Origin: Candidatus Aminicenantes bacterium
GTDB lineage: Bacteria > Acidobacteriota > Aminicenantia > Aminicenantales > UBA8522
DNA length: 64,000 bases
Direction of reading: 5' to 3'
NCBI GenBank assembly: GCA_037444845.1
Contig: JBBILQ010000005.1
Coordinates: 6,185-70,184 of the forward strand
Shown here: piece after piece, positions 5,062-64,000 of the stretch
How the letters are laid out: every line of letters starts with the position of its first letter
Position numbering within the stretch: the stretch's first letter is position 1
Program-made: the position numbers and the translations under genes
Notes under the pieces: model-generated
Database searches by the model: none
Told to the model about the DNA's origin: nothing
What the model saw: only the letters and a program-made list of their open reading frames with translations

Positions 5062-8956
<3,895 letters not shown>

Positions 8957-51919: not shown

Positions 51920-53628
51920 TCGGCCTTTCTCTGCCGGTCGCGGATGGCCAGCAGGTCTTTCATGACATTAAACATATTCCCCGTCCACTCCTTCGTGCCG
52001 AAAGCGTCATGGAGCTGGAGGTAGAGCCGATAGAGTTCCTTATAGACCTTGTGATTCTCTGCGTTCGGCCGGAAGGTTTCAGCCCTGACGCCGCACATGG
52101 CTCGCTGCGCCTCGATAAAATCGGCATGGCCGCCTCGCTTCTTCCCGGCGACGACAGCGCCGGCGATCGAAGCTCCAAGGGCGCAGGTCTGGGGCGAGCG
52201 GGCGATCTTCATTTCCCGGCCTGTGACGTCAGCGTAAACCTGCAGGACAAACGGGTTCTTTTCGGCGATGCCGCCGCAGTTGACGATCTCGGAAATTCTG
52301 ACGCCGTACTCTTCAAACCTGTTAATGATAGTCAGGGCGCCGAACGCCGTGGCCTCGATAAGGGCCCGGTAAACCTCCTCGGGCGTCGTGGCGAGCGTCT
52401 GGCCGATGAGCAGCCCTGCCAGCCGCTGGTCGACAAGGACAGTCCGGTTGCCATGATTCCAGTCCAGGGCTAAAAGGCCGGATTGGCCCGGCTTGAGTTT
52501 AGCTGCTTTAGCTGTCAGCGCCTCGTGCGCACCCTCGGCCGTCCCTCCCGGGTTGATGGAATGCACAAACCAGTTAAAGATGTCCCCAACAGCCGATTGT
52601 CCCGCCTCGAGTCCAAAAAAGCCGGGCAGGACCGAGCCGTCGACGATGCCGCACAGCCCTGGGATATCAGCTAACGCGTCCGTGTTGGGCCAGACGGTGA
52701 TGTCGCATGTGCTCGTCCCGAGAATCTTAACCAAGACGTCCGGCGCGACGCCCGCTCCCACAGCCCCAAAATGAGCGTCAAAAGCGCTGACCGCGACCGG
52801 AATGCCAGCCTCCAGGCCAAGTCGCCGGGCCCACTCGCCTGAAAGCCTTCCCGCCTCCGCATCAGAAGTGAAAGTTTTATCGTAGAGGCGGCCTCGGAGT
52901 TCTCCCAGCCTGGGGTCAAGCCTGGTCAGAAACTCCCGCGAAGGCAATCCTCCCCAGGCGTCGTTAAACATGGCCTTGTGTCCGGCCGCGCAGCGGCTCC
53001 GCTTCATGGTCAACGGGTCTGAGTTTCCCGTCAACAACCCGGGAATGTAGTCGCAGCATTCGACCCAGCTAAAAGCCGCTTCGAAAACCCGCCTGTCTGT
53101 CCGCAGGCAGTGGAAAATTTTGCTGAAGAACCATTCGGAAGAGTAGGTGCCGCCGCACTTGGCCAGATACTCGGGATGCTCCTTTCGAGCGAGCTCGGTG
53201 ATCTCCGCAGCCTCGGCAAAAGCCGTGTGATCTTTCCACAACCAGGCCATGGCGTTTGGATTATCCTTGAACTCATCCCTGAAGCTCAACGGCGTGCCGG
53301 CCCGGTCGACGGGAAATGGCGTTGAGCCTGTCGTGTCGATGCCGATGCCGATAATCTGCTCTTTCTTCAGGGTCGAGTCAGCCTTTTTCGCCTCGGCCAG
53401 GACCTTGCGCACGACTCGTTCGGCTCCCCTGATATAGTCCCCGGGATCCTGCCGGGCCAGGTTAGAATCAGCGGGGTCGAGGATGATTCCTGCCTGGCCA
53501 GTCTCGTACTCATGGACTGCAGCGGCTATCTCCCGGCCGTTGCCCACGTCAGCCAACAGAGCCCGGACAGAGTTTGTCCCGAAATCAAAGCCCAGGCTAA
53601 GGGCTCTTCCCTTCATTTCACCTTCCAT
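51916..53628 (-). CDS. araB: Ribulokinase (FGGY carbohydrate kinase)
   Basis: 570 aa. FGGY N- and C-terminal domains; the N-terminus reads LSLGFDFGTNSVRALL. Confidence 0.8.
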   Translation of the reverse strand: MEGEMKGRALSLGFDFGTNSVRALLADVGNGREIAAAVHEYETGQAGIILDPADSNLARQDPGDYIRGAERVVRKVLAEAKKADSTLKKEQIIGIGIDTTGSTPFPVDRAGTPLSFRDEFKDNPNAMAWLWKDHTAFAEAAEITELARKEHPEYLAKCGGTYSSEWFFSKIFHCLRTDRRVFEAAFSWVECCDYIPGLLTGNSDPLTMKRSRCAAGHKAMFNDAWGGLPSREFLTRLDPRLGELRGRLYDKTFTSDAEAGRLSGEWARRLGLEAGIPVAVSAFDAHFGAVGAGVAPDVLVKILGTSTCDITVWPNTDALADIPGLCGIVDGSVLPGFFGLEAGQSAVGDIFNWFVHSINPGGTAEGAHEALTAKAAKLKPGQSGLLALDWNHGNRTVLVDQRLAGLLIGQTLATTPEEVYRALIEATAFGALTIINRFEEYGVRISEIVNCGGIAEKNPFVLQVYADVTGREMKIARSPQTCALGASIAGAVVAGKKRGGHADFIEAQRAMCGVRAETFRPNAENHKVYKELYRLYLQLHDAFGTKEWTGNMFNVMKDLLAIRDRQRKAE

Positions 53629-56027
53629 TCGTGGATCCCTGCTGAGAAATTCTGCTGCAACTTGATTTCAAGGCGAAGCGCCTGGGTCCTGACGGGCCTG
53701 AACCTCATTATGTTAAAGGCGTCTTTTTCCAGGCCGTAGGGATCGAGGTTCTCGACAGGCCGCCATTCATCACCGGTTTTGTACAGGACCTGCCAGGCGG
53801 CCGGAACGCGGCATTCGCCCCGGCCCGTGTCGTCGTACCAGTAGACTTCAACTGCAGACACGGGAGCCGGGCGGGCGAAGTCATACTGAACCCATTCCGT
53901 GGTTCCCCTGGCAGGCCACCAGTGAAAATAAGGGCATTCCTGGTCGCTCGAGCTCGTTGGCTCCCGTTGATCATTAACGGCAAACGCAGGTCTGTCGCTC
54001 GAGGCGCTGACTGCGCTTCGCGAAGCGACCGTTGGGTTGGGCAGGACACGAGCTTTGGCGGCTTCCCTGGCAAGCCAAACAGCCATCTCCCCTTCCCCGC
54101 GGTGGGCCCAGGCATAATAAGGGATGGCTGTAAACTCCCGGCTGATGCTCTCCACAGAACCTGCCATCCGGCCCTCCCGAAGCGCTGCGGCTCCGCCCTT
54201 GACGACAAAGACGCCGTTGAGAAGACCATCCCGTTTCTCCGATTCGAGCGTCGCCTCGTCGGGCAGCACAAGGTTGCTCGCAAGGCCGTTGTTATCCGGC
54301 CATTCGGCACAGTAGACAAGAGGGCCGCGCTCCAGGGCGACCCTGCCCTCATCGCTTTTGACGGCCTGATGAGCCACTACCCGACGAACGGGCATCGGAA
54401 CATCGAGCTCGACAACATCCCCGCTCTTCCAGGCGCGCCGGACGACGGCATAACCCTGGCTGATTTCGAGCTCGATTTCCTGGCCGTTTGCCCGAAGGGC
54501 GATCGGGCTCTTTTCCTCATCAAGATAACGATAGAGATCGCCCGGCACCGGCTTGCCCAGGGCCCAGCCGGGAATCCGAAGAAGGAGACTAAACTCGGCG
54601 GGCCTCTCAAGAGCAAAGGAAACCATGACCTTCCCTTCCCAGGGATAGCGCGTTTCCTGCTCGACCCGGATCTTCTGTCCCCTGAAGTTCATGCTGGCGT
54701 TCCCTGCCGCATAGAGGTTGACGTACAGGGCATCATCCCTCGTTGCGTACATAAACCCGGGAACTTGAGGGATGAAGCGGGTGACGTTCGACGGGCAGCA
54801 AGCGCAGTTAAACCATGGGCTGCGTCGGTGCTGGCCAAAGGAGGCCAGCGGGTTGGGATAGAAAAACAGGTCGCCGCTCAACCCGATTCCCGAAAGGAGG
54901 GCGTTATAAAGGGTTCTCTCGAGGATGTCGATGTGCTTCGACTCTCCTGTGAGGAGGAACATGCGGTGATTCCAGAGGACAAACCCGATGGAGGCGCAGG
55001 TTTCACAGTACGCTGACGCGTTGGGAAGTTCATAATCAGGGCCAAACCCCTCGATGCCGCCCGCTGCGCCTATGCCGCCGGTGATGTACATCTTCTTAAA
55101 CACGATATTCTCCCAGAGTTTGTCGAGAGCTTCGAGGTAGGCTCTGTCGCCGGTCAGGGCGGCCACATCGGCCATTCCCGAATACATGTACGTAGCGCGG
55201 ACAGCATGTCCGACCGCTTCCGCCTGCTGGCTGACGGGTTTGTGGTCCTGGGAGTATTCGCCGTAGAGCTTTCTCTCCTTGGCGTTTCCCCGTTCAGCAA
55301 GAAAGAAATTGGCCAGCTCCAGGTATTTCTTTTTTCCGGTCAGGCGGTAGAGCTTGACCAGGCCGATCTCGATCTCCTGGTGGCCGGGAACATCGTGCCT
55401 CTTGCCCGGGCCAAAAACGTTTAAAATCAAATCAGCGCTCTTGAGCGCCACGTTAAGGAGGTTCTTTTTCCCCGTAGCCCGGTAATGGGCCACGGCTGCT
55501 TCATAAAGGTGTCCGAGATTGTAAAGCTCGTGGCTCATGTAGAGGTTGGACCAACGCTCCTTGCCCACCCAGTCCACGGGCGGATGAGCAGGGTCGATCG
55601 TCCGCGCCGTGTAGAGATACCCATCGTCCTCCTGGGCTGCAGCGATCTTGGCGATGAGCTCGTCCACGTATTTCTCAAGCCCCGGGTCGGGGTGCGTCAT
55701 CAGAGCATAGGATGCTCCTTCGATGACCTTGAAGACATCAGAATCGTCGAAGGGATATTTGGTGCAAAAGGAGCCTTCTTTCAGGCCTGCGGCGATCTCG
55801 AAATTTGCGATTCGGCCGGTCGTTTCACACTGTTTGAAGGCAAACGGGATGGTGACGGCGCGGTTCGTCTCAATCCTCGGCGCCCAGAACTCGTCAACCA
55901 GCTTGACTTCAGTAAAGAGAACCGGGCTAAGAGGGTATCCCGATTGAACCGCTTTCTTGCAAGAAACCCCAGAACCCAAGATGCCCAGAATGGCGATGGC
56001 AAAACAAGGCCATTTTGTCCTTTTCAT
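53613..56027 (-). CDS. GH127-family beta-L-arabinofuranosidase-like lipoprotein with a C-terminal F5/8 type C (discoidin) domain
   Basis: Lipoprotein signal (LGILGSGVSC). The Zn/Cys motif NCACCPSN is characteristic of GH127 (DUF1680). A discoidin-like domain forms the C-terminus. Confidence 0.7.
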   Translation of the reverse strand: MKRTKWPCFAIAILGILGSGVSCKKAVQSGYPLSPVLFTEVKLVDEFWAPRIETNRAVTIPFAFKQCETTGRIANFEIAAGLKEGSFCTKYPFDDSDVFKVIEGASYALMTHPDPGLEKYVDELIAKIAAAQEDDGYLYTARTIDPAHPPVDWVGKERWSNLYMSHELYNLGHLYEAAVAHYRATGKKNLLNVALKSADLILNVFGPGKRHDVPGHQEIEIGLVKLYRLTGKKKYLELANFFLAERGNAKERKLYGEYSQDHKPVSQQAEAVGHAVRATYMYSGMADVAALTGDRAYLEALDKLWENIVFKKMYITGGIGAAGGIEGFGPDYELPNASAYCETCASIGFVLWNHRMFLLTGESKHIDILERTLYNALLSGIGLSGDLFFYPNPLASFGQHRRSPWFNCACCPSNVTRFIPQVPGFMYATRDDALYVNLYAAGNASMNFRGQKIRVEQETRYPWEGKVMVSFALERPAEFSLLLRIPGWALGKPVPGDLYRYLDEEKSPIALRANGQEIELEISQGYAVVRRAWKSGDVVELDVPMPVRRVVAHQAVKSDEGRVALERGPLVYCAEWPDNNGLASNLVLPDEATLESEKRDGLLNGVFVVKGGAAALREGRMAGSVESISREFTAIPYYAWAHRGEGEMAVWLAREAAKARVLPNPTVASRSAVSASSDRPAFAVNDQREPTSSSDQECPYFHWWPARGTTEWVQYDFARPAPVSAVEVYWYDDTGRGECRVPAAWQVLYKTGDEWRPVENLDPYGLEKDAFNIMRFRPVRTQALRLEIKLQQNFSAGIHEWKVK

Positions 56028-56208
56028 CCGCCTAACCTCCTCATTTTCCTGGCAGGAATTCCTATTCTATCACCTTTCTTTGATCACCGCCAACCCGCAA
56101 AACCCGCCAGCGGCTCCATCCGGAGTCTCTTTGAATTCGCCTGCACCTTTGTTTTTTCCTCTAACGAGCTCGCAGGGGATCCTGTATTCACCATCAAAGA
56201 AATCGCTT

Positions 56209-58965
56209 CTATTTGACCGGGACAGTCTGAGGCCCTATGGTCCAGCCCCTCCGGTCTTTGATGAACACCTTTCGGCTGAGCTTTTTTCCTCCAGCTTCGA
56301 GGTTGACGACGTATTCGCCCGGATCGACGAGCTGGCCTCTCGACCGGTCCCAGCCTGCCTCGCCCACCTCCTCTTTTGTCGGCGTGGCCCTCATATCCCA
56401 GAGCACAGCGTTCAGGCCAGGGTCGGTTTTTCCGGAGATCTCCCGGAGGACCTGGCCGTAGGGGTCAGTGATCGTGATTTTGACCTTATCCTTTGGCTTT
56501 TCTTTAAGATAATAATTGAAAGTCACGGCGTTTGGCTCGTTGGGAGTGGCCAGGTGCCTGTCCCCCATGAGCCGGTAGTTCCCCCATCCCCTCGTCATCC
56601 ACTGGGTGCGAGGTTCAACCTCAAAAAGATAAACATCTTCATCCAAGACTTTATCGTTGAGCTCCTGGAGCGGCGAGACGTCCGTCACGAAAACGCCGCG
56701 GCCGTAGGTTCCCACGACGAGGTCGTTCTCGCGGGGATGAACGAGAAAGTCTTTGACCGGAGCTGACGGCAGGTTGTTTTTCAGCCGCACCCACGTCCCG
56801 CCGCTGTCGATGGAGACGAAAACGCCGCCGTCAGACCCCAGAAAAACGAGATCCGGATTCTTCCGGTCTTCGAAGACGACGTTCACCGGGAATTCAGGCA
56901 GGCTGCTCCCAAGACTCTTCCAGGTTGCTCCATAGTCCTCCGTCTTATAAACAAACGGCCGGAAATCGTCGTTGCGAAAACCGGTCTTGGCCACGTAAGC
57001 CTTGCCTTCTCTGTGGTGGGAAGCGAAGACCCGGCTGACCCAGCGGTCTTCGGGCGCGCCCGCGCGGCTCAAGTTTGCCGTCAGATCCGACCAGTTTGCT
57101 CCGCTGTCGCGGGTCAGCCAGACTTTGCCGTCGTCCGTCCCCACCCAAATGAGCCCGGGCGAGAGCGGAGATTCGGATATGGTCGTGACCGTGCAGAACG
57201 TGATATGGCCCCGGCCCGCCGTCTTTTCGGGGTCGTTAAGGGTCAGGTCCTGGCTAATCTCCTGCCAGGTGTCGCCGCGGTTAAACGACCGCAGGAGCAC
57301 CTGAGCGCCGGTGTAGATAATCCGGCTGTTGTGCGGCGAGATATGGATGGGCGGGGTCCAGTTGAACCTGTAAGGGGGTTTCCCTTTTTCTCGGACAGGC
57401 TGAATATTCGTCCGCATGCCGAGTTTCTGGTCCACCCGGCTGTGGCCGCCGAACTGATACGTGTTATAAACCCAGCGGCTATCCTCAGGATCGACGACGT
57501 TGACCATTCCGTCCTGGACGCCGACGGTCACCCAATCCTCCAACGTGACTTCGCCCGACCAGGCGTTCGACGGCCCTTTCCAGGAGTCATGGTCCTGGAG
57601 GCCGCCGTAGATGTTATACGGCTCTTCCATGTCCACGCCGACGGCGTAGAACTCGCCGAGAGGGATGTTGTAGAGATGATCGCACGTCTTGCCGCCGTCA
57701 TAAGAGATGTAGACCCCGCCGTCGCTGCCGAAGAGCATCCGGTCGGAGTTCTCGGGGTCAATCCAGAATGCGCGCACGTCGCCAAAGGCCGAGGCAAAGA
57801 GCGTCGGAGGCCAGCCTAAGTTCTTCCAGGTTTTTCCGCCGTCATAGGAATAGGCAATGGCGATGCCGGTAATATAAACATTCTGATCGTCGTTGGGATC
57901 AACGCATATCTGGTTAAACGAGTAAGCGGCTTTGCCGGAGACATCGTCCCGGTCTGAGTTCATTTTTTTCCAGGTCGCTCCGGCGTCGTCAGACCGGTAG
58001 ACTTCGCCTGCGATGGCCCTCGGCCGCGGCTCAATCCCGCGGCGGCGGTCTTCCTTTGCTTCCTCCTCGGTTGGCGGACGCATGTTGGCATTTTCGACGA
58101 CGGCATAGACGATGTCCGGGTTCTTGCGGTAGAGATCGACGCCGATCCGGCCGATTTTTCCCGAGGGAAGCCCGCCGCCGAGCCGCTGCCAGGTTCGGCC
58201 TGCATCCGTTGTTTTGTAGATGCCGCTTTCTGGCCCGCCCTCCTCAAAATGCCAGGGATAGCGGTATTTTTCGTAGGCCGCGGCGTACAGAATGTCGGGG
58301 TTTTTCAAGTTCATGGCCAGGTCAATGACGCCGACCTTTTCGTTGATATAAAGAACCCTCTCCCATGATATCCCGCCGTCCATTGTCTTAAAAACTCCGC
58401 GCTCATCGTTAAACGAAAAAAGATGGCCCATGGCTGCCACGTAGACGACGTCCGGGTTCTTGGGATGAATGACAATCCGGGCGACGTGATGGGAATCGCG
58501 GAGTCCCATGTTCGTCCAGGTCTTGCCGCTGTCAGTGGATTTGTAAACGCCGTCCCCGCGATGGGAGCTCCGCGCGTTATAGGCTTCGCCTGTCCCCACC
58601 CAAAGGATGTCCGGGGTGGAGGGAGCCACGGCGATAGCGCCGATGGAGAGGTACTCCTGGCCGTCAAAGACGGGCTCGAATGTCGTGCCGTTGTTCGTCG
58701 TCTTCCAGACGCCCCCGTTTCTTGTGGCCACATAGAAAGTATAAAGGTGGGCTTTTGCTGGCGCATCGGGCACGGCAAAACCTGTCACCCAGGAGCCGCA
58801 GCGAAAAGGCCCGAGGTTGCGGAAGGTGAAGTTCTTGAGGAGCGCTTGACCGAAGCTTGGCCTGTCTTCCGCTCTGACAAAATCGATAGAAACGATAAAA
58901 ACTATCGGAATAATAAAAATTAACCTTGCCGCCAGAAAACCGGGCATTCGCTGGTTTGCCTTCAT
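56209..58965 (-). CDS. Secreted BNR/Asp-box repeat (sortilin/Vps10-like) protein, putative glycoside hydrolase
   Basis: Ten or more Asp-box repeats (STDSGKTW, TMDGGISW, TTDAGRTW, SDDAGATW, SYDGGKTW, SFNRGDTW, TRDSGANW, TEDYGATW, SIDSGGTW). Signal peptide; the probable ATG is at 58965. Confidence 0.6.
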   Translation of the reverse strand: MKANQRMPGFLAARLIFIIPIVFIVSIDFVRAEDRPSFGQALLKNFTFRNLGPFRCGSWVTGFAVPDAPAKAHLYTFYVATRNGGVWKTTNNGTTFEPVFDGQEYLSIGAIAVAPSTPDILWVGTGEAYNARSSHRGDGVYKSTDSGKTWTNMGLRDSHHVARIVIHPKNPDVVYVAAMGHLFSFNDERGVFKTMDGGISWERVLYINEKVGVIDLAMNLKNPDILYAAAYEKYRYPWHFEEGGPESGIYKTTDAGRTWQRLGGGLPSGKIGRIGVDLYRKNPDIVYAVVENANMRPPTEEEAKEDRRRGIEPRPRAIAGEVYRSDDAGATWKKMNSDRDDVSGKAAYSFNQICVDPNDDQNVYITGIAIAYSYDGGKTWKNLGWPPTLFASAFGDVRAFWIDPENSDRMLFGSDGGVYISYDGGKTCDHLYNIPLGEFYAVGVDMEEPYNIYGGLQDHDSWKGPSNAWSGEVTLEDWVTVGVQDGMVNVVDPEDSRWVYNTYQFGGHSRVDQKLGMRTNIQPVREKGKPPYRFNWTPPIHISPHNSRIIYTGAQVLLRSFNRGDTWQEISQDLTLNDPEKTAGRGHITFCTVTTISESPLSPGLIWVGTDDGKVWLTRDSGANWSDLTANLSRAGAPEDRWVSRVFASHHREGKAYVAKTGFRNDDFRPFVYKTEDYGATWKSLGSSLPEFPVNVVFEDRKNPDLVFLGSDGGVFVSIDSGGTWVRLKNNLPSAPVKDFLVHPRENDLVVGTYGRGVFVTDVSPLQELNDKVLDEDVYLFEVEPRTQWMTRGWGNYRLMGDRHLATPNEPNAVTFNYYLKEKPKDKVKITITDPYGQVLREISGKTDPGLNAVLWDMRATPTKEEVGEAGWDRSRGQLVDPGEYVVNLEAGGKKLSRKVFIKDRRGWTIGPQTVPVK

Positions 58966-59137
58966 CCTTTTACCATCCCGCGACAATTCCGTTCTCCTTT
59001 CATTTCTTTTTTCTCTCTTATAGTACAGTTAAGAGCCAGTGTCAAAACCCCGGCCCGAAGCAGATGCCGTCCTTGCCATTGTTTGATGCCTTGATCTGTG
59101 CTATAAGCTAACAAAAGGAACATGAAGGAGGGAGTGA

Positions 59138-60304
59138 ATGAAGAAAAACAGAGGCCTTTATCTCAGCGTGGCAATCATGGCCGTCATCCTGGTCAGTTTC
59201 TTTTCCTGCAAAGGCGAGAAAGCCAAACAGCAAAAACCATTTGAAGGACTCATTAAAATGGACATTCGAAAACAATCCTTCGGCAGGCTGCCCGACGGGT
59301 CCGAGGTCGAAGTGTTCACCCTGACCAACAGCCACGGACTCAAGGCCAGGATCATGACCTATGGCGCGACCCTTGTCTCCCTCGAAGTGCCGGACAAGAG
59401 CGGGGAACTAACCGATATCGTTTTGGGCCACGACTCTCTGGAGGGCTATCTTGACCCGGCTCGAAACCCCTACTTCGGCTCGATCGTCGGCCGGTATGGA
59501 AACCGAATCGCTCGGGGCAGGTTCACTCTCGACGGCGTCGAATACCAGCTCGCTGCAAATAACGGCGCAAACCACCTCCACGGCGGGGTCAAGGGGTTCG
59601 ATAAGGTCCTCTGGACGGCCGAACCCATAAAGGAGGAAGCCGCTGTCGGAGTCAAGCTCCGTTACCTGAGCCGAGACGGGGAGGAAGGCTACCCCGGGAA
59701 TCTGATTGCAACCGTGATTTACTGGCTGACAGAAGCGAACGAGTTACGAATCAGCTACGAAGCCGAGACCGACAGGCCCACTCCAGTCAACCTTACCCAT
59801 CACAGCTACTTCAACCTGGCCGGGCAGGGAGAAGGCGATATCCTTGGCCATGAACTGATGCTTAACGCCAGCCACTTCACTCCTGTTGACGAAGGCCTCA
59901 TCCCGACAGGCGAGGTCCGTCCCGTCGCGGGAACGCCCTGGGATTTCACCATCCCCAGGGCTATCGGCGCTGAGATCGCCGCCGTCCCTGGCGGATACGA
60001 CCACAATTTCGTCCTGCGCGACGGCGAAGGGACGCTCAGGCTGGCGGGCCGCGTCGTGGAACGCGCGAGCGGCCGCGTGATGGAAATTTACACCATAGAG
60101 CCGGGAATCCAGTTCTACTCGGGAAATTTCCTGGACGGCACAATCACCGGCAAGAGCGGAAAAGCCTACCGGAAGCATTACGGGTTCTGCCTGGAACCGC
60201 AGCATTTTCCCGACTCGCCGAACAAGCCTGACTTCCCCTCGACGATCCTTCGCCCCGGCGAGAAATACACGAGCCTGACCGTCCATAAATTTTTCACCAG
60301 GTAA
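59138..60304 (+). CDS. Aldose 1-epimerase (mutarotase), lipoprotein
   Basis: Lipobox (FFSC), then the GalM fold blocks (GATLVSL, HGG.KGFD). Confidence 0.8.
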   Translation: MKKNRGLYLSVAIMAVILVSFFSCKGEKAKQQKPFEGLIKMDIRKQSFGRLPDGSEVEVFTLTNSHGLKARIMTYGATLVSLEVPDKSGELTDIVLGHDSLEGYLDPARNPYFGSIVGRYGNRIARGRFTLDGVEYQLAANNGANHLHGGVKGFDKVLWTAEPIKEEAAVGVKLRYLSRDGEEGYPGNLIATVIYWLTEANELRISYEAETDRPTPVNLTHHSYFNLAGQGEGDILGHELMLNASHFTPVDEGLIPTGEVRPVAGTPWDFTIPRAIGAEIAAVPGGYDHNFVLRDGEGTLRLAGRVVERASGRVMEIYTIEPGIQFYSGNFLDGTITGKSGKAYRKHYGFCLEPQHFPDSPNKPDFPSTILRPGEKYTSLTVHKFFTR

Positions 60305-60428
60305 CCTGGGCTCGTTTTGTTTCTATCGCCAGCCTCAAGATATTTTGATTTTCTTTGGCAATTTCTTCAATCTATAATAAGAGACGAATTTTCTGGTCGC
60401 TGTCAGGTTCGCATGAAAAGCTTACAGT

Positions 60429-61139
60429 GTGATGAAACTCAGTTTTAACCAGCCGGCGTTCATTCCGTGGGGCGGGTTTTTCGCTCGCCTGATGTCCTCC
60501 GACAAAATGGTTCTCCTCGATGAGACCATCCTGGCCCGCGGTTTCACGTACGTCAACAGAAATCGCATCAAAGGACCCGAGGGAGAGGTCTGGATAACCG
60601 TGCCGCTCAAGCGCAAGGGCCGCGGCCGGCAGAAGATAAGAGACATCGAAATCTACGAAAAAGAAAGGTGGGCCAAAAAATTCTTGCTGACTCTCAAACA
60701 TTACTACGGCAAATCCGTCTATTTTGAGCCCGTCTTCGCCGACATTCGCGCGGCCGCGGAGAATCCTGGAGAAAATTTTCTACCTCTAACACGGGCCCTC
60801 CTTGATATCCTGAAAACTGGGTTGGGCATCGAGACGGAGCTGATTCTCCAGTCCCGCCTCGGCATCGCCGGCAGGGGCACTCCCCTGCTCGTTTCCATCG
60901 CCAAAAAGCTCGGCGCTCATGAAGTCATCCTGCCTTATTTTTCGGAAAAAGCGATAGATTGCGCTCAGTTCAGGGATGAACATATCCGGGTGAGGCTGTT
61001 GCGCTATTTGCCGCCCCAGTATCCTCAATTCTGGGGTGATTTCCTCATGAACCTCTCAAGTCTTGACTTGTTGCTGTGCTGCGGCCGGGACGGGCGCGCG
61101 GCCATCGAAAAGGGCATCCGCTTTTGTGACCTGCCATGA
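60429..61139 (+). CDS. WbqC-like family protein
   Basis: The NQPAFIPWGGFF...NRNRI...TVPL...YF...QF...LSSLDLLLCCG pattern matches the conserved WbqC-like blocks. GTG then ATG at 60432. Confidence 0.7.
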   Translation: MMKLSFNQPAFIPWGGFFARLMSSDKMVLLDETILARGFTYVNRNRIKGPEGEVWITVPLKRKGRGRQKIRDIEIYEKERWAKKFLLTLKHYYGKSVYFEPVFADIRAAAENPGENFLPLTRALLDILKTGLGIETELILQSRLGIAGRGTPLLVSIAKKLGAHEVILPYFSEKAIDCAQFRDEHIRVRLLRYLPPQYPQFWGDFLMNLSSLDLLLCCGRDGRAAIEKGIRFCDLP

Positions 61140-61155
61140 AAGGACTGGTGACAAG

Positions 61156-61812
61156 ATGAAAAAAAGCCTGATCGAATCTGATGCTTTTCAGAAGAAATCA
61201 CGGGAGAGTCTTGAGAAGCTGAAGGAGTTCAGCAAGAGGCGCGCTTTTGTGTTCATGCCTCAAAGCGCTGCTCTTCTCATCGTCGATATGCAGAGGTATT
61301 TTCTGGACAGGCGCTCGCACGCTTTTATTCCAGACGCTCCTCTGATCACAGGCCAAATCAAAAATCTGTCAGCAGCATTCCTGAAAATGAATTTGCCGGT
61401 TATCCTCACGCGCCACATCAACACCCAGAGAAACGCCAAACTCATGGGCAAATGGTGGAAAGACGTCATCACGGAAAAGAGCAGGCTGAGCCACGTCATC
61501 CCCGAATTAGATTTCCAGGGGGCGACTGTAATCAAAAAAACCCAGTATGATGCCTTTTACCGGACCAATCTCGAGAATATATTAAAAAGAAAAAAAGTTA
61601 AGCAGGTTGTCATAACGGGAGTGGCGACCCACCTCTGCTGCGAGACCACGGCAAGGTCTGCCTTTATGAGAGGATTCACAGTCTTCCTGCCCGTGGACGG
61701 GACAGCGACTTTCGCGGAAAGTTTTCTTGAGGCGTCACTCCTCAACCTCGCTCATGGCTTCGCTATCCCCGTGCTCTGTGAGGAGCTGATGGACCGAATG
61801 GAGGTGTCTTGA
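61156..61812 (+). CDS. Isochorismatase-family cysteine hydrolase
   Basis: The start is the internal ATG at 61156 (MKKSLIES). LIVDMQ, the catalytic-Cys block ITGVATHLCCETTARSA, and the typical length. Confidence 0.7.
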   Translation: MKKSLIESDAFQKKSRESLEKLKEFSKRRAFVFMPQSAALLIVDMQRYFLDRRSHAFIPDAPLITGQIKNLSAAFLKMNLPVILTRHINTQRNAKLMGKWWKDVITEKSRLSHVIPELDFQGATVIKKTQYDAFYRTNLENILKRKKVKQVVITGVATHLCCETTARSAFMRGFTVFLPVDGTATFAESFLEASLLNLAHGFAIPVLCEELMDRMEVS

Positions 61813-62705
61813 TGATACCTGTCACGGATGTGGCCATAATCGGAGCAGGGCCTGCCGGAGTCTCAGCCGCCATTCAATTGAGGCGGTATGGCATCGAATT
61901 TATCGTTCTCGAAAAAGAGAGAATCGGAGGACTGCTGCTAAACGCGAACCTCGTAGAAAACTACCCCGGCTTCCCTGGGGGCATTCCGGGTCAGGATCTC
62001 GTCAGGCTTTTGGAGAGCCACCTGGAAAATTCCGGAGTTCACGTCTCATTCCAGGAAGTTCTGGAACTCGATCATGACGGGAGCGTTTTTATTATCAGGA
62101 CAAACGGGGGAGCGCTGGCTTCCCGGATCGCGGTGATTGCCTCGGGCACTGTTCCCCTCAGGCTTACGCAGGCCGTTCCCAAGGAGATAGAAAGCCGTAT
62201 TTTTTATGAAATTGTCCCGCTGGCCCAGGTTTCGGGCAAAAAAATTGCCGTCATCGGCTCAGGTGACGCCGCCTTTGACTACGCGCTGAGCCTCTCTCAA
62301 AAGAACGAGGTTCTCATCCTCAACAGATCGGAAAAAATCAAATGCCTTCCGCTCCTCTGGAAAAGAGCCATGGAGGTGTCAACAATCTCATATCTCGAGA
62401 ATCTCCAGGTCACAACCATCAACCAGGCTGATAGCGGGCTGCTCCTCTGTGGTCGCAGCCCTCATGAGAAGCGTGACATCCATGTTTCCTTTCTTGTTGT
62501 GGCCGTGGGAAGAAGGCCGAATCTTGATTTCTTGAGCCAGAATCTTAAAAATAACCTGAAGGAATATAGAAAAGAAAGGTTGCTTTATATGGCCGGTGAT
62601 GTTAAAAACGGCATTTACAGACAGGCTGCCATATCTGCCGGTGACGGAATCAAGGCGGCCATGGAAATCTTCAAGGAAAAAAAGGAGGCTCAGTCGTGCG
62701 CATAA
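61809..62705 (+). CDS. Thioredoxin-reductase-fold FAD/NAD(P) flavoprotein lacking the redox-active CxxC (ferredoxin-NADP reductase-like)
   Basis: VAIIGAGPAG, ENYPGFPGGI (a TrxB-like block), and a second GxGxxA (VIGSGDAA). There is no CATC/CxxC. A 4-bp overlap links it to the neighbouring genes on both sides. Confidence 0.6.
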   Translation: MMIPVTDVAIIGAGPAGVSAAIQLRRYGIEFIVLEKERIGGLLLNANLVENYPGFPGGIPGQDLVRLLESHLENSGVHVSFQEVLELDHDGSVFIIRTNGGALASRIAVIASGTVPLRLTQAVPKEIESRIFYEIVPLAQVSGKKIAVIGSGDAAFDYALSLSQKNEVLILNRSEKIKCLPLLWKRAMEVSTISYLENLQVTTINQADSGLLLCGRSPHEKRDIHVSFLVVAVGRRPNLDFLSQNLKNNLKEYRKERLLYMAGDVKNGIYRQAAISAGDGIKAAMEIFKEKKEAQSCA

Positions 62706-63631
62706 TTGCCAAAACAGGCCGGGAAGACGTGGCCATGGTTTATATCGGAGAAACAGGAAAAGGAAACTTTATTGAATTCGTAGAATCTCTCCAGCCTCCC
62801 CTTCCCATAGAGGAAAAATGGGTTTTGACTGTTTCGACGCTGCAGGGATGCCCTGTCTGCTGCCGTTTTTGTGATGCGGGAGGATTCTACAAAGGAATTC
62901 TGACCAAAGACGAGATTATTTCCCAGATTGATTACCTGGTAGAGAGAAGATTTCCTGAGAAAAAGGTGCCTGTTAAGAAGTTCAAAATTCAGTTTGCCAG
63001 AATGGGTGAGCCTTCTTTCAACCCCGATGTCCTGGAAGTGCTTGAGTGTCTGCCTGAATTATACGATGCGCCGGGGCTTATTCCGTCCTTCTCCACCGTT
63101 GCTCCAGCAAGTCCGCATGATTTTTTCGAAAGATTGCTAAAAATAAAGAACCTAAAATATGCCAGGAGCTTTCAACTTCAGTTCTCTGTCCATTCCACAG
63201 ACGATCAGGCGAGAGACTGGCTTATCCCGGTCAAAAAGTGGAGCTTTGAAGAGATCGCAGCGTTTGGAAGGAGATTCGCCGATGGCGGAGGCAAAAAAAT
63301 AACCCTCAATTTTGCCCTGGCAGAGGGACTGCCGGTTGACCCCTGTCGGCTCTTGAAATACTTCTCCCCCGATACATTTCTGATAAAAATTACCCCCGTC
63401 AACCCGACGCTCCAGGCTGCAAGGAACCGGATTTCTTCGCTGGTTCCTCATCCTGATGGAGAGAGAATCATCTCTGACCTGAGGAAGGCCGGTTATGAAG
63501 TTATGCTCAGTATCGGAGAACTGGAAGAGAACCGTATCGGAAGCAATTGCGGGATGTATATCGCCGCCTATGAAAAGACCCGCCAGCTCACAGGCGGAAG
63601 CTATGCCTATGAGATCAAAAGATTCTCTTAA
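62696..63631 (+). CDS. RlmN/Cfr-like radical SAM enzyme, N-terminally truncated and lacking the Cys118-equivalent
   Basis: VSTLQGCPVCCRFCDAG...ILTKDEIISQ aligns with the RlmN VSSQVGCALECKFCST...NLRVSEIIGQ block. MGEPSFNP matches the MGMGEPLLN block. The C-terminal NCGMY aligns with the RlmN AACGQL methyl-carrier Cys. There is no N-terminal ~70-aa domain, and a Thr sits at the resolving-Cys position. Confidence 0.65.
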   Translation: MRIIAKTGREDVAMVYIGETGKGNFIEFVESLQPPLPIEEKWVLTVSTLQGCPVCCRFCDAGGFYKGILTKDEIISQIDYLVERRFPEKKVPVKKFKIQFARMGEPSFNPDVLEVLECLPELYDAPGLIPSFSTVAPASPHDFFERLLKIKNLKYARSFQLQFSVHSTDDQARDWLIPVKKWSFEEIAAFGRRFADGGGKKITLNFALAEGLPVDPCRLLKYFSPDTFLIKITPVNPTLQAARNRISSLVPHPDGERIISDLRKAGYEVMLSIGELEENRIGSNCGMYIAAYEKTRQLTGGSYAYEIKRFS

Positions 63632-63655
63632 AGGCTATCGGATAACGCCGCGGCT

Positions 63656-63675
63656 GAGCGGTCCAGCGCTTTTTT
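63656..63675 (+). terminator. Putative intrinsic terminator after the four-gene operon
   Basis: A GAGCG-GTCCAG-CGCT hairpin followed by TTTTTT, 25 nt after the rSAM stop. Confidence 0.4.
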
Positions 63676-63696
63676 AACAGCGAGATGAGCCTGTTT

Positions 63697-64000
63697 CTAC
63701 CCGATGCGGAGGACTTTGGCGCCGCGGATTATGCGGTTTTTGATTTCGAGCAGGGCTCTGTTCGCCTCCTCGAGCGGAAACGCCTGCACCTCAGGTTTAA
63801 TGGGAATCTTGGCCGCCAGATCCAGAAACTCGGCCACATCCGTCCTCGTCACGTTGGCCACGCTCTTGATTTCTTTTTCCATCCAGAGGTGGGCAGGATA
63901 ATCGAGTTTCAGGAGACAGTCTTTATCCGCGTCCTCCTTGCGGATGGCGTTGATAACGAGCCTTCCGCCGCTTGCCAGATTCTTCAGGGCTTCGACAACC
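63697..64000 (-). CDS. Zn-dependent alcohol dehydrogenase, C-terminal part; the gene continues beyond the window end
   Basis: Frame is open to the window edge. The C-terminus ...ANRALLEIKNRIIRGAKVLRIG is typical of medium-chain dehydrogenases. Confidence 0.6.
   Translation of the reverse strand, partial: VVEALKNLASGGRLVINAIRKEDADKDCLLKLDYPAHLWMEKEIKSVANVTRTDVAEFLDLAAKIPIKPEVQAFPLEEANRALLEIKNRIIRGAKVLRIG

Follow-up and report, generated by a model that had tools for sequence, protein, structure and literature searches.

A mobile three-gene cassette with an RlmN/Cfr-like radical SAM enzyme, a flavoprotein and a cysteine hydrolase in a Candidatus Aminicenantes bacterium and other anaerobes

Near the right end of a 64,000-nucleotide stretch of DNA from Candidatus Aminicenantes bacterium (GenBank assembly GCA_037444845.1, contig JBBILQ010000005.1, positions 6,185 to 70,184; here called the window), four tightly spaced genes raise two questions. 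Which of them belong together, and what might their products do? An open reading frame (ORF) listing places all four on the + strand at 60429-63631. They code for a WbqC-like protein, a cysteine hydrolase, a flavoprotein and a radical S-adenosylmethionine (SAM) enzyme that resembles RlmN and Cfr. An earlier note on this DNA had read them as one four-gene operon of a modification or biosynthetic system. Its genes and domain assignments are confirmed by the ORF listing and by the profile searches against Pfam that it had proposed. The unit itself, however, is smaller. Hydrolase, flavoprotein and radical SAM enzyme make up a cassette that recurs in bacteria and archaea; the WbqC-like gene is a resident neighbour. 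The three genes of the cassette are:

61156-61812, + strand: cassette gene 1, isochorismatase-fold cysteine hydrolase of 218 amino acids (PF00857, E 6e-39)
61812-62705, + strand: cassette gene 2 (ATG start), flavoprotein of the thioredoxin reductase (TrxR) fold with flavin adenine dinucleotide (FAD) and NAD(P)H sites, without redox CxxC, 297 amino acids (Pyr_redox_2/3, E ~1e-22)
62696-63631, + strand: cassette gene 3 (GTG start), radical SAM enzyme of RlmN/Cfr-like fold, 311 amino acids

How constant is this arrangement? The radical SAM gene was searched for in one genome per GTDB species. The scan yielded at least 572 confirmed matches, of which the best 80 loci were examined, and gene co-occurrence was scored there by tblastn with the four window proteins. 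Among these best 80 loci, 71 have enough upstream DNA to be judged, and in 70 of them the radical SAM gene is directly preceded by the flavoprotein gene. A hydrolase gene upstream of the flavoprotein gene is seen in 55 of 66 informative loci, or in 56/66 if one fragmented copy (L010) is included. The window matches the recurrent arrangement, i.e., hydrolase, flavoprotein and radical SAM enzyme in this order, all on the same strand and either closely spaced or slightly overlapping. The hosts of the trio are diverse. They include the cultured archaeon Methanogenium sp. MK-MG (L023), Methanomicrobiaceae, Thermoplasmatota, Chloroflexota, Cloacimonadota, Krumholzibacteriota, Fraserbacteria, Acetothermia and Thermodesulfobacteriota. 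The radical SAM protein of the window is 53-67% identical to those of Thermoplasmatota, Methanogenium, Chloroflexota, Bacteroidota and others.

In some organisms the genes have merged. An exhaustive hidden Markov model search of 1.84 billion protein representatives, with domains assigned by Pfam, disclosed fusions of the flavoprotein with the radical SAM protein (P0261, P0285, P0302) and of the radical SAM protein with the hydrolase, the isochorismatase domain being C-terminal (P0287, P0294, P0303, P0320, P0327 (Elusimicrobiota)). Both fusion types are found on several independent contigs, and some of their clusters contain more than one protein, with the members stemming from different contigs. 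Long radical SAM or hydrolase ORFs at some other loci, e.g., L076, were rejected as fusions; they are upstream open frames in high-GC (guanine plus cytosine) DNA. That the order is kept and that both pairwise fusions occur argues strongly for a joint function of the three proteins, and by this evidence hydrolase, flavoprotein and radical SAM enzyme are one functional unit. To this extent the neighbourhood comparison across species genomes sustains the earlier note: the combination of the three enzymes is real and conserved. Around the trio, all-versus-all clustering of the ORFs of 82 loci detected no conserved gene, and a Pfam scan of 83 immediate neighbours revealed no theme, the commonest family occurring in only 4/83.

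The fourth gene is a different matter. Its surroundings, and those of the cassette, are the following:

60432-61139, + strand: WbqC-like gene (ATG; a GTG lies at 60429), 235 amino acids from the ATG (PF08889, E 2.5e-54); resident neighbour, outside the cassette
~61140-63695, no strand: inserted segment, i.e., the entire three-gene cassette, missing from the syntenic loci of relatives; GC content 49.6%
63697-64000, - strand: 3' end of a convergent Zn-dependent alcohol dehydrogenase (ADH) gene, right flank of the insertion, exits the window; ORF 63697-63882

That all four genes, the WbqC-like one included, serve one modification or biosynthetic pathway was a natural thought. The adjacency is real, the strand is the same, the gap between the WbqC-like and the hydrolase gene is 16 nucleotides, and the same layout is seen in a close relative, L090, which is 86-90% identical at the nucleotide level over the shared region. 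Yet L090 is the only other place where the four-gene arrangement was found, and there the gap measures 85 nucleotides. WbqC is present in none of the 80 species loci that carry the radical SAM cassette. A copy of the trio with 83.5% nucleotide identity (L087) occupies a different site and has a TonB-dependent receptor gene upstream instead. Conversely, two relatives hold the neighbours without the trio. In L091 and L092, whose WbqC proteins are 75% and 70% identical to that of the window, a GH127 gene and a BNR/sortilin gene point to the left, an aldose epimerase and the WbqC gene to the right, and a Zn-ADH gene to the left again, with nothing between WbqC and ADH. This ADH_N/ADH_zinc_N gene is homologous to the fragment at 63697-64000 of the window. 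By blastn, the window segments 60431-61111 and 63696-64000 lie next to each other in L091, at 7000-7680 and 7721-8025; the same holds for L092. Since these loci keep the flanks without the trio, ~61140-63695 is to be regarded as a 2.5-kilobase (kb) insertion of exactly the trio. Thus, with regard to co-occurrence in other genomes, the claim for four genes fails and that for three passes strongly; a common pathway of all four is hardly credible.

The base composition is also peculiar. The GC content of the cassette, 49.6%, compares with a window mean of 54.8% (z = -2.2), and 1.6% of 2.5-kb windows are as low. The insertion relative to syntenic relatives, the other site in L087, the low GC content and the radical SAM identity across distant hosts jointly mark the trio as a self-contained, horizontally mobile cassette that was inserted with the resident WbqC-like gene on one side and the convergent ADH gene on the other.

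What kind of enzyme is the radical SAM protein? RlmN and Cfr, which it resembles, are class A radical SAM methyltransferases that modify A2503 of 23S rRNA at C2 or C8 and A37 of tRNA; in RlmN, C355 is the methyl carrier. The likeness is substantial. An AlphaFold2 (AF2) model of the cassette protein with a mean predicted local distance difference test (pLDDT) of 88 has its best PDB matches by Foldseek in RlmN (6fz6, 3rfa, 4pl1) and Cfr (9p0p), with template modelling (TM) scores of 0.60-0.69 and E-values down to 8e-14. Apart from the fold, it shares with them the CxxxCxxC cluster motif, the GEP, 'SxH..D..R' and 'NP' motifs and the cysteine of the C-terminal 'CGQ' loop. The cluster motif, C52-x3-C56-x2-C59, is invariant in alignments of 22 and of 69 sequences, and the only other invariant cysteine in either of them is C285 in the 'IGSNCG' loop. 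In a profile alignment Cys285 ('IGSNCGQ') falls on the cysteine of Cfr 'IDAACGQ', the equivalent of RlmN C355 and Cfr C338.

The differences are just as conspicuous. Sequence identity to RlmN and Cfr is ~20%. Among the NCBIfam models RlmN (TIGR00048) fits best, yet it scores 46.9 bits against a cutoff of 290; TIGR04432 scores 31.3 against 550 and NF000424 33.6 against 530. Even the general radical SAM profile, PF04055, reaches 29.4 bits, just below its threshold of 29.5. The N-terminal RNA-binding domain of RlmN is missing: the TIGR00048 match begins at model position 78 and query residue 10. The resolving cysteine, C118 in RlmN and C105 in Cfr, is missing as well. Its position, seven residues before the cluster motif, is taken by Thr45 in alignments to C118A RlmN (4pl1) and Cfr (9p0p), and across the family it holds Thr or Ile, never Cys, according to the per-column cysteine fractions. 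Moreover, unlike RlmN and Cfr, the cassette enzyme has obligate flavoprotein and hydrolase partners, to which it may be fused. The RlmN/Cfr fold is thus kept, but two defining features fail, because the C118 cysteine and the N-terminal domain are absent.

The earlier note had called the protein truncated, and this cannot be upheld. A search of 5.8 billion protein clusters (90% identity) returned 6,090 matches at E <= 0.001. Lengths among the 120 best homologues range from 297 to 343 residues and identities from 58 to 100%, and all begin with a common MRIIAKTG... N-terminus; they come from WOR-3, Stahlbacteria, Cloacimonadota, Bacteroidota, Zixibacteria, Marinimicrobia, Latescibacterota, Aminicenantes and Thermoplasmata archaea. 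Judged by these homologues, about 310 residues is the full length of the family, and the protein is a member of a family of its own and not a truncated RlmN.

Could it still be a C-methyltransferase of RNA (rRNA or tRNA) or of protein, a paralogue of RlmN and Cfr with two accessory proteins, that serves housekeeping or Cfr-like antibiotic resistance? RlmN and Cfr are its only characterised relatives by fold, and JGI labels members of the family 23S rRNA (adenine2503-C2)-methyltransferase. The strong conservation and the scattered positions resemble those of housekeeping modification genes, the horizontal mobility that of resistance genes. However, neither the RNA-binding domain nor an equivalent of C118 is present, and the scores lie far under the RlmN and Cfr cutoffs. 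The family was found on none of 72,556 plasmids, in no phage genome and on no IMG/VR viral contig. Nor does the tightly coupled, sometimes fused hydrolase have a role in RNA methylation. We consider this explanation quite improbable. An RlmN-type RNA enzyme is not to be expected, because the N-terminal domain is lacking and Thr stands at the C118 position, and the earlier view that the locus is no conventional rRNA methyltransferase operon was well founded.

The flavoprotein shows a similar mixture of old and new. Like low-Mr TrxR and YumC-type ferredoxin-NADP reductase (FNR), it has the two-Rossmann TrxR fold with FAD and NAD(P)H motifs, of which GxGxxG, GxGDAAFDYA and GD...RQ are conserved. 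Unlike TrxR, it has no CxxC, as the earlier note had recognised. In the alignment with TrxR 4zn0, 'IFYEIVP' faces 'VSYCAICDG', and for want of the CxxC the protein cannot be counted as a thioredoxin reductase. No curated cutoff is reached; the TrxR model TIGR01292 gives 146.7 bits against 343. The note had also seen in it a dedicated electron donor of the YumC/FNR type. The type does not fit well, for the protein is closer to TrxR proper (E 2e-30) than to TrxR-type FNR entries (3e-12 to 1e-8), but a role as dedicated donor is plausible and is supported by the fusions of flavoprotein and radical SAM protein.

The flavoprotein has one further feature of note. Cys179 (window ~62346-62348), in the segment 'NRSEKIKCLP', is conserved in ~90% of the family. 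It was considered as a resolving cysteine acting in trans and judged unlikely to be one: by alignment to the HRRxxxR motif of TrxR it appears to fall into the segment that binds the NADPH phosphate.

The hydrolase belongs to a well-known fold. With the isochorismatases EntB and PhzD and with the cysteine amidohydrolases PncA, RutB, CSHase and BiuH it has in common the PF00857 fold (134.3 bits against a gathering score of 27) and the Asp-Lys-Cys triad. Over 45 homologues Asp44 and Lys128 are conserved in >=95% and Cys161 in 100%. Its best PDB relative is the isochorismatase domain of EntB (E 1.5e-19); amidases such as RutB (1e-11) come after it. In contrast to EntB, however, which reads 'HIGC' at this site, the cassette enzyme retains the nucleophilic cysteine ('HLCC'). 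It is below every NCBIfam equivalog cutoff. The conserved residues of all three proteins indicate that the module is catalytically intact.

What, then, does the cassette do? Tentatively, and with a probability that we would put slightly below even, we read it as a self-sufficient module for the tailoring or salvage of a small molecule that brings along its own NAD(P)H-driven reductase. The flavoprotein, which has lost the disulfide centre and kept both dinucleotide motifs, would pass electrons from NAD(P)H to the [4Fe-4S] cluster of the radical SAM enzyme as its dedicated reductase. The cassette would thereby be independent of the ferredoxin or flavodoxin of the host, which would suit its mobility. 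This role is proposed because the order reductase-then-radical SAM enzyme in the fusions and the portability across hosts with different electron carriers fit it. The radical SAM enzyme would cleave SAM to the 5'-deoxyadenosyl radical and, with the help of Cys285, the RlmN C355 equivalent, convert a small soluble substrate and not rRNA. The cysteine hydrolase would cut an amide or ester of the same molecule just before or after the radical step. The outcome might be an RlmN-type methyl or methylene transfer that dispenses with the second cysteine, or a radical C-X cleavage without methylation.

Several points weigh against this proposal. On thermodynamic grounds NAD(P)H is poorly suited to reduce radical SAM clusters, and ferredoxins of low potential are available in these anaerobes. 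The donor role, plausible as it is, derives from adjacency, fusion and fold, and the flavoprotein could act on the substrate instead. In 10/66 loci the hydrolase is not adjacent, for which reason it may be accessory. Neither the 83 neighbours scanned nor the literature offers a clue to the substrate, and Rfam detected no relevant riboswitch in the window, even at permissive E-values, or in 12 trio loci. Finally, genes that are scattered without a fixed context and very highly conserved across domains are likewise characteristic of enzymes whose targets are universal macromolecules, such as tRNA, rRNA or ribosomal proteins. A defence system is not indicated by PADLOC, which gave no matches. As the earlier note had surmised, no described pathway accounts for the locus: the trio appears in neither the searchable literature nor curated models, and the combination is apparently undescribed.

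Some guidance comes from the closest relatives of the radical SAM protein found outside the trio. They form a sister clade of short RlmN-like proteins (35% identity, E 1e-41; hhalign probability 100%, E 2e-44) that matches phrog_24834 and is much closer to the cassette enzyme than RlmN is. Both are of the same length class, both have lost the N-terminal domain and the cysteine at the C118 position, and both conserve the C-terminal cysteine, which in the sister clade stands in 'TCGN'. Their company differs. Unlike the cassette enzyme, members of the phrog_24834 clade stand alone in phage or jumbo-phage-like contigs or are fused to the queuosine-precursor transporter QueT; they are never found with the flavoprotein or the hydrolase. 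Their genes sit in modules of phage replication and nucleotide metabolism and are also found on jumbo-phage-like contigs (L093, L095). Phage-like contexts also prevail at 80 gut and rumen metagenome loci (L098-L177), at none of which QueT was found nearby. A homologue search with the sister-clade protein P0359 gave no source name that points to a function or a cultured host. Two fusions to QueT are known, P0365 (QueT-radical SAM) and P0376 (QueT-radical SAM-MTA/SAH nucleosidase).

Three individual members may be mentioned. Genes for phrog_24834 proteins of ~340 residues are carried by Bacteroides phage Versailles (L088, 4833-5840) and Moorella phage MTATph1 (L089, 4830-5654), in the latter one small ORF away from the thymidylate synthase gene. 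P0376, 814 residues long, is encoded at 6001-8445 of L097, a Bacilli metagenome-assembled genome (MAG; GCA_024408655.1). It stands alone and is labelled by NCBI as a nucleosidase only; its domains suggest that it could be a queuosine/queuine salvage machine in one polypeptide.

The QueT fusions lead to another radical enzyme. QueL converts queuine to preQ1, and its gene in Clostridioides difficile lies beside the genes of an ECF-S transporter and of the queuosine hydrolase QueK (PMC11130926, PMC11570991, PMC12632869); the accessions of the C. difficile protein are Q186P0 and YP_001088187.1 (PMC11130926, PMC11570991). By comparison of descriptions, the sister clade with its QueT-fused members is possibly the QueL group of queuine lyases, which is a lead from the literature. 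Short RlmN-like radical SAM enzymes, in short, may not all be methyltransferases. The earlier statement that the cassette enzyme implies C-methylation of an sp2 carbon is accordingly not safe: one of the two catalytic cysteines of RlmN and Cfr is missing, and the closest relatives include QueT fusions.

Might the cassette itself work in this way? The radical SAM enzyme would then be a QueL-like lyase of micronutrient salvage that breaks a conjugated heterocycle or a cofactor precursor at a C-N or C-O bond. The hydrolase would play the part that falls to the nucleosidase QueK in queuosine salvage and release the substrate from a conjugate, and the flavoprotein would supply the electrons. The relationship to a clade with QueT fusions speaks for it, as does the described neighbourhood of QueL with its transporter and hydrolase (PMC11130926, PMC11570991), and a mobile, context-free cassette of sediment and digester anaerobes suits salvage. 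On the other side, the membership of QueL in the sister clade is taken from description, not from sequence. QueT, tgt or a nucleosidase is nearby in 0/80 trio loci, the 80 metagenomic loci of the sister clade are phage-like and have no QueT, and the archaeal hosts do not make queuosine. We hold this to be unlikely.

The sister clade also bears on a quite different chemistry, in which class A methylation is retained and a flavin stands in for the missing residue. SAM would methylate Cys285, the 5'-deoxyadenosyl radical would activate the methyl group, and the resulting methylene would be added to a small molecule at an sp2 carbon, with the flavoprotein in place of the resolving cysteine. The adduct, Cys-CH2-substrate, would be resolved by hydride or electrons from the flavoprotein. 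Comparable adducts are resolved by reduced flavin in ThyX and TrmFO. The closest solved folds and sequences are, after all, those of RlmN and Cfr; the methyl-carrying 'CGQ' cysteine is invariant while the C118 equivalent is Thr or Ile; and an obligate flavoprotein partner that is at times fused calls for an explanation. Yet the residue that is missing is one of those catalytic residues that define the class. The nearest clade, at 35% identity, is also devoid of the C118 cysteine and occurs without any flavoprotein in phage-like contigs, and its QueT fusions hint at chemistry other than methylation. Besides, the only conserved cysteine of the flavoprotein, Cys179, seems to lie in the NADPH-phosphate-binding segment and not close to the flavin. 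We doubt that methylation proceeds this way in the cassette, and the resolution of the adduct by the flavoprotein is as doubtful as the rest.

A broader possibility, which we rate as conceivable though on the unlikely side, is that the cassette enzyme represents an RlmN-like subclass with a new mechanism. In this subclass the flavoprotein would replace the resolving cysteine, the host reductase or both, and the radical SAM enzyme, jointly with the hydrolase, would perform a novel C-methylation or C-X cleavage on a widely available small metabolite or cofactor precursor. If true, this would define a new salvage or tailoring pathway in hundreds of anaerobic bacterial and archaeal species, methanogens included.

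The tailoring or salvage module with its own reductase, which we tentatively prefer, and its alternatives have consequences beyond this locus. To our knowledge, no class A radical SAM methylase other than RlmN and Cfr has been characterised, and the target of both is RNA. A large sister family, with at least 572 matches in species genomes and ~6,000 protein clusters, tests how far their chemistry reaches: it keeps one catalytic cysteine, is devoid of the second and of an RNA-binding domain, and comes firmly tied to its two partners, flavoprotein and hydrolase. With the fusions of flavoprotein and radical SAM protein, nature provides a system in which the in vivo reduction of radical SAM clusters can be studied. 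The transfer of the cassette among bacteria and archaea of anoxic habitats suggests a shared metabolite or micronutrient. Present annotation calls members of the family 'radical SAM protein' or, wrongly, 23S rRNA methyltransferase.

Some details of the locus remain to be reported. The gaps between the four genes are +16 nucleotides (WbqC/hydrolase), -1 (hydrolase/flavoprotein) and -10 (flavoprotein/radical SAM). The earlier note had given +16, -4 and -10. The first and the last value agree; -4 results from the in-frame TTG at 61809, whereas the ATG at 61812, which the database copy P0123 also uses, yields -1. The note had further described a leader with TATAAT and a hairpin with a T-run behind the genes. 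The TATAAT exists, at ~60373, but a consensus scan called no promoter at it, and the region has 2 promoter-like sites where 2.4 are expected by chance. The hairpin and T-run 3' of the trio were not called as a terminator, and the folding of 63625-63700 is not better than that of shuffled sequence (z = 0.03).

The WbqC-like protein of 60432-61139 has homologues of 66-90% identity mostly in MAGs of Aminicenantales and Acidobacteriota. No relative of solved structure was detectable. Its AF2 model, built on a 7-sequence alignment, is of low confidence (pLDDT 63), and Foldseek returned no match at E <= 0.001, so no fold can be assigned. The gene closes a block at 53613-61139 that also comprises genes for a GH127 beta-L-arabinofuranosidase-like protein, a BNR/sortilin-domain protein and an aldose 1-epimerase and is syntenic in L090, L091 and L092. 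Here a protein of the WbqC family is tied to carbohydrate-utilisation genes, not to an O-antigen cluster. L090 (GCA_029907205.1, JARYMI010000008.1) was deposited as 'Clostridiales bacterium'; the next WbqC relatives and the synteny all belong to Aminicenantales/Acidobacteriota, and the label is probably wrong.

At certain trio loci the neighbours are worth mentioning. Six loci of Krumholzibacteriia, Latescibacterota and unclassified MAGs (L014, L032, L036, L043, L078, L081) have a gene of an MttB-family methyltransferase, often accompanied by one of a corrinoid protein, upstream of the trio; downstream, on the opposite strand, they have a porin-like gene and that of quinolinate synthase NadA. 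This context of 5-6 loci is probably clade-specific synteny, although a connection with the metabolism of methylamine, corrinoids or NAD is conceivable. In two Thermoplasmata loci (L001, L015) a gene of the glyoxalase/VOC fold overlaps the stop codon of the radical SAM gene by 4 nucleotides (8951-9334 in L001), and ABC transporter genes come next. In L016 and L022 the radical SAM gene is closely followed on its 3' side by genes of an O-methyltransferase, a crotonase-like protein and a second methyltransferase. The glyoxalase/VOC and the methyltransferase/crotonase neighbours are lineage-specific additions to the cassette.

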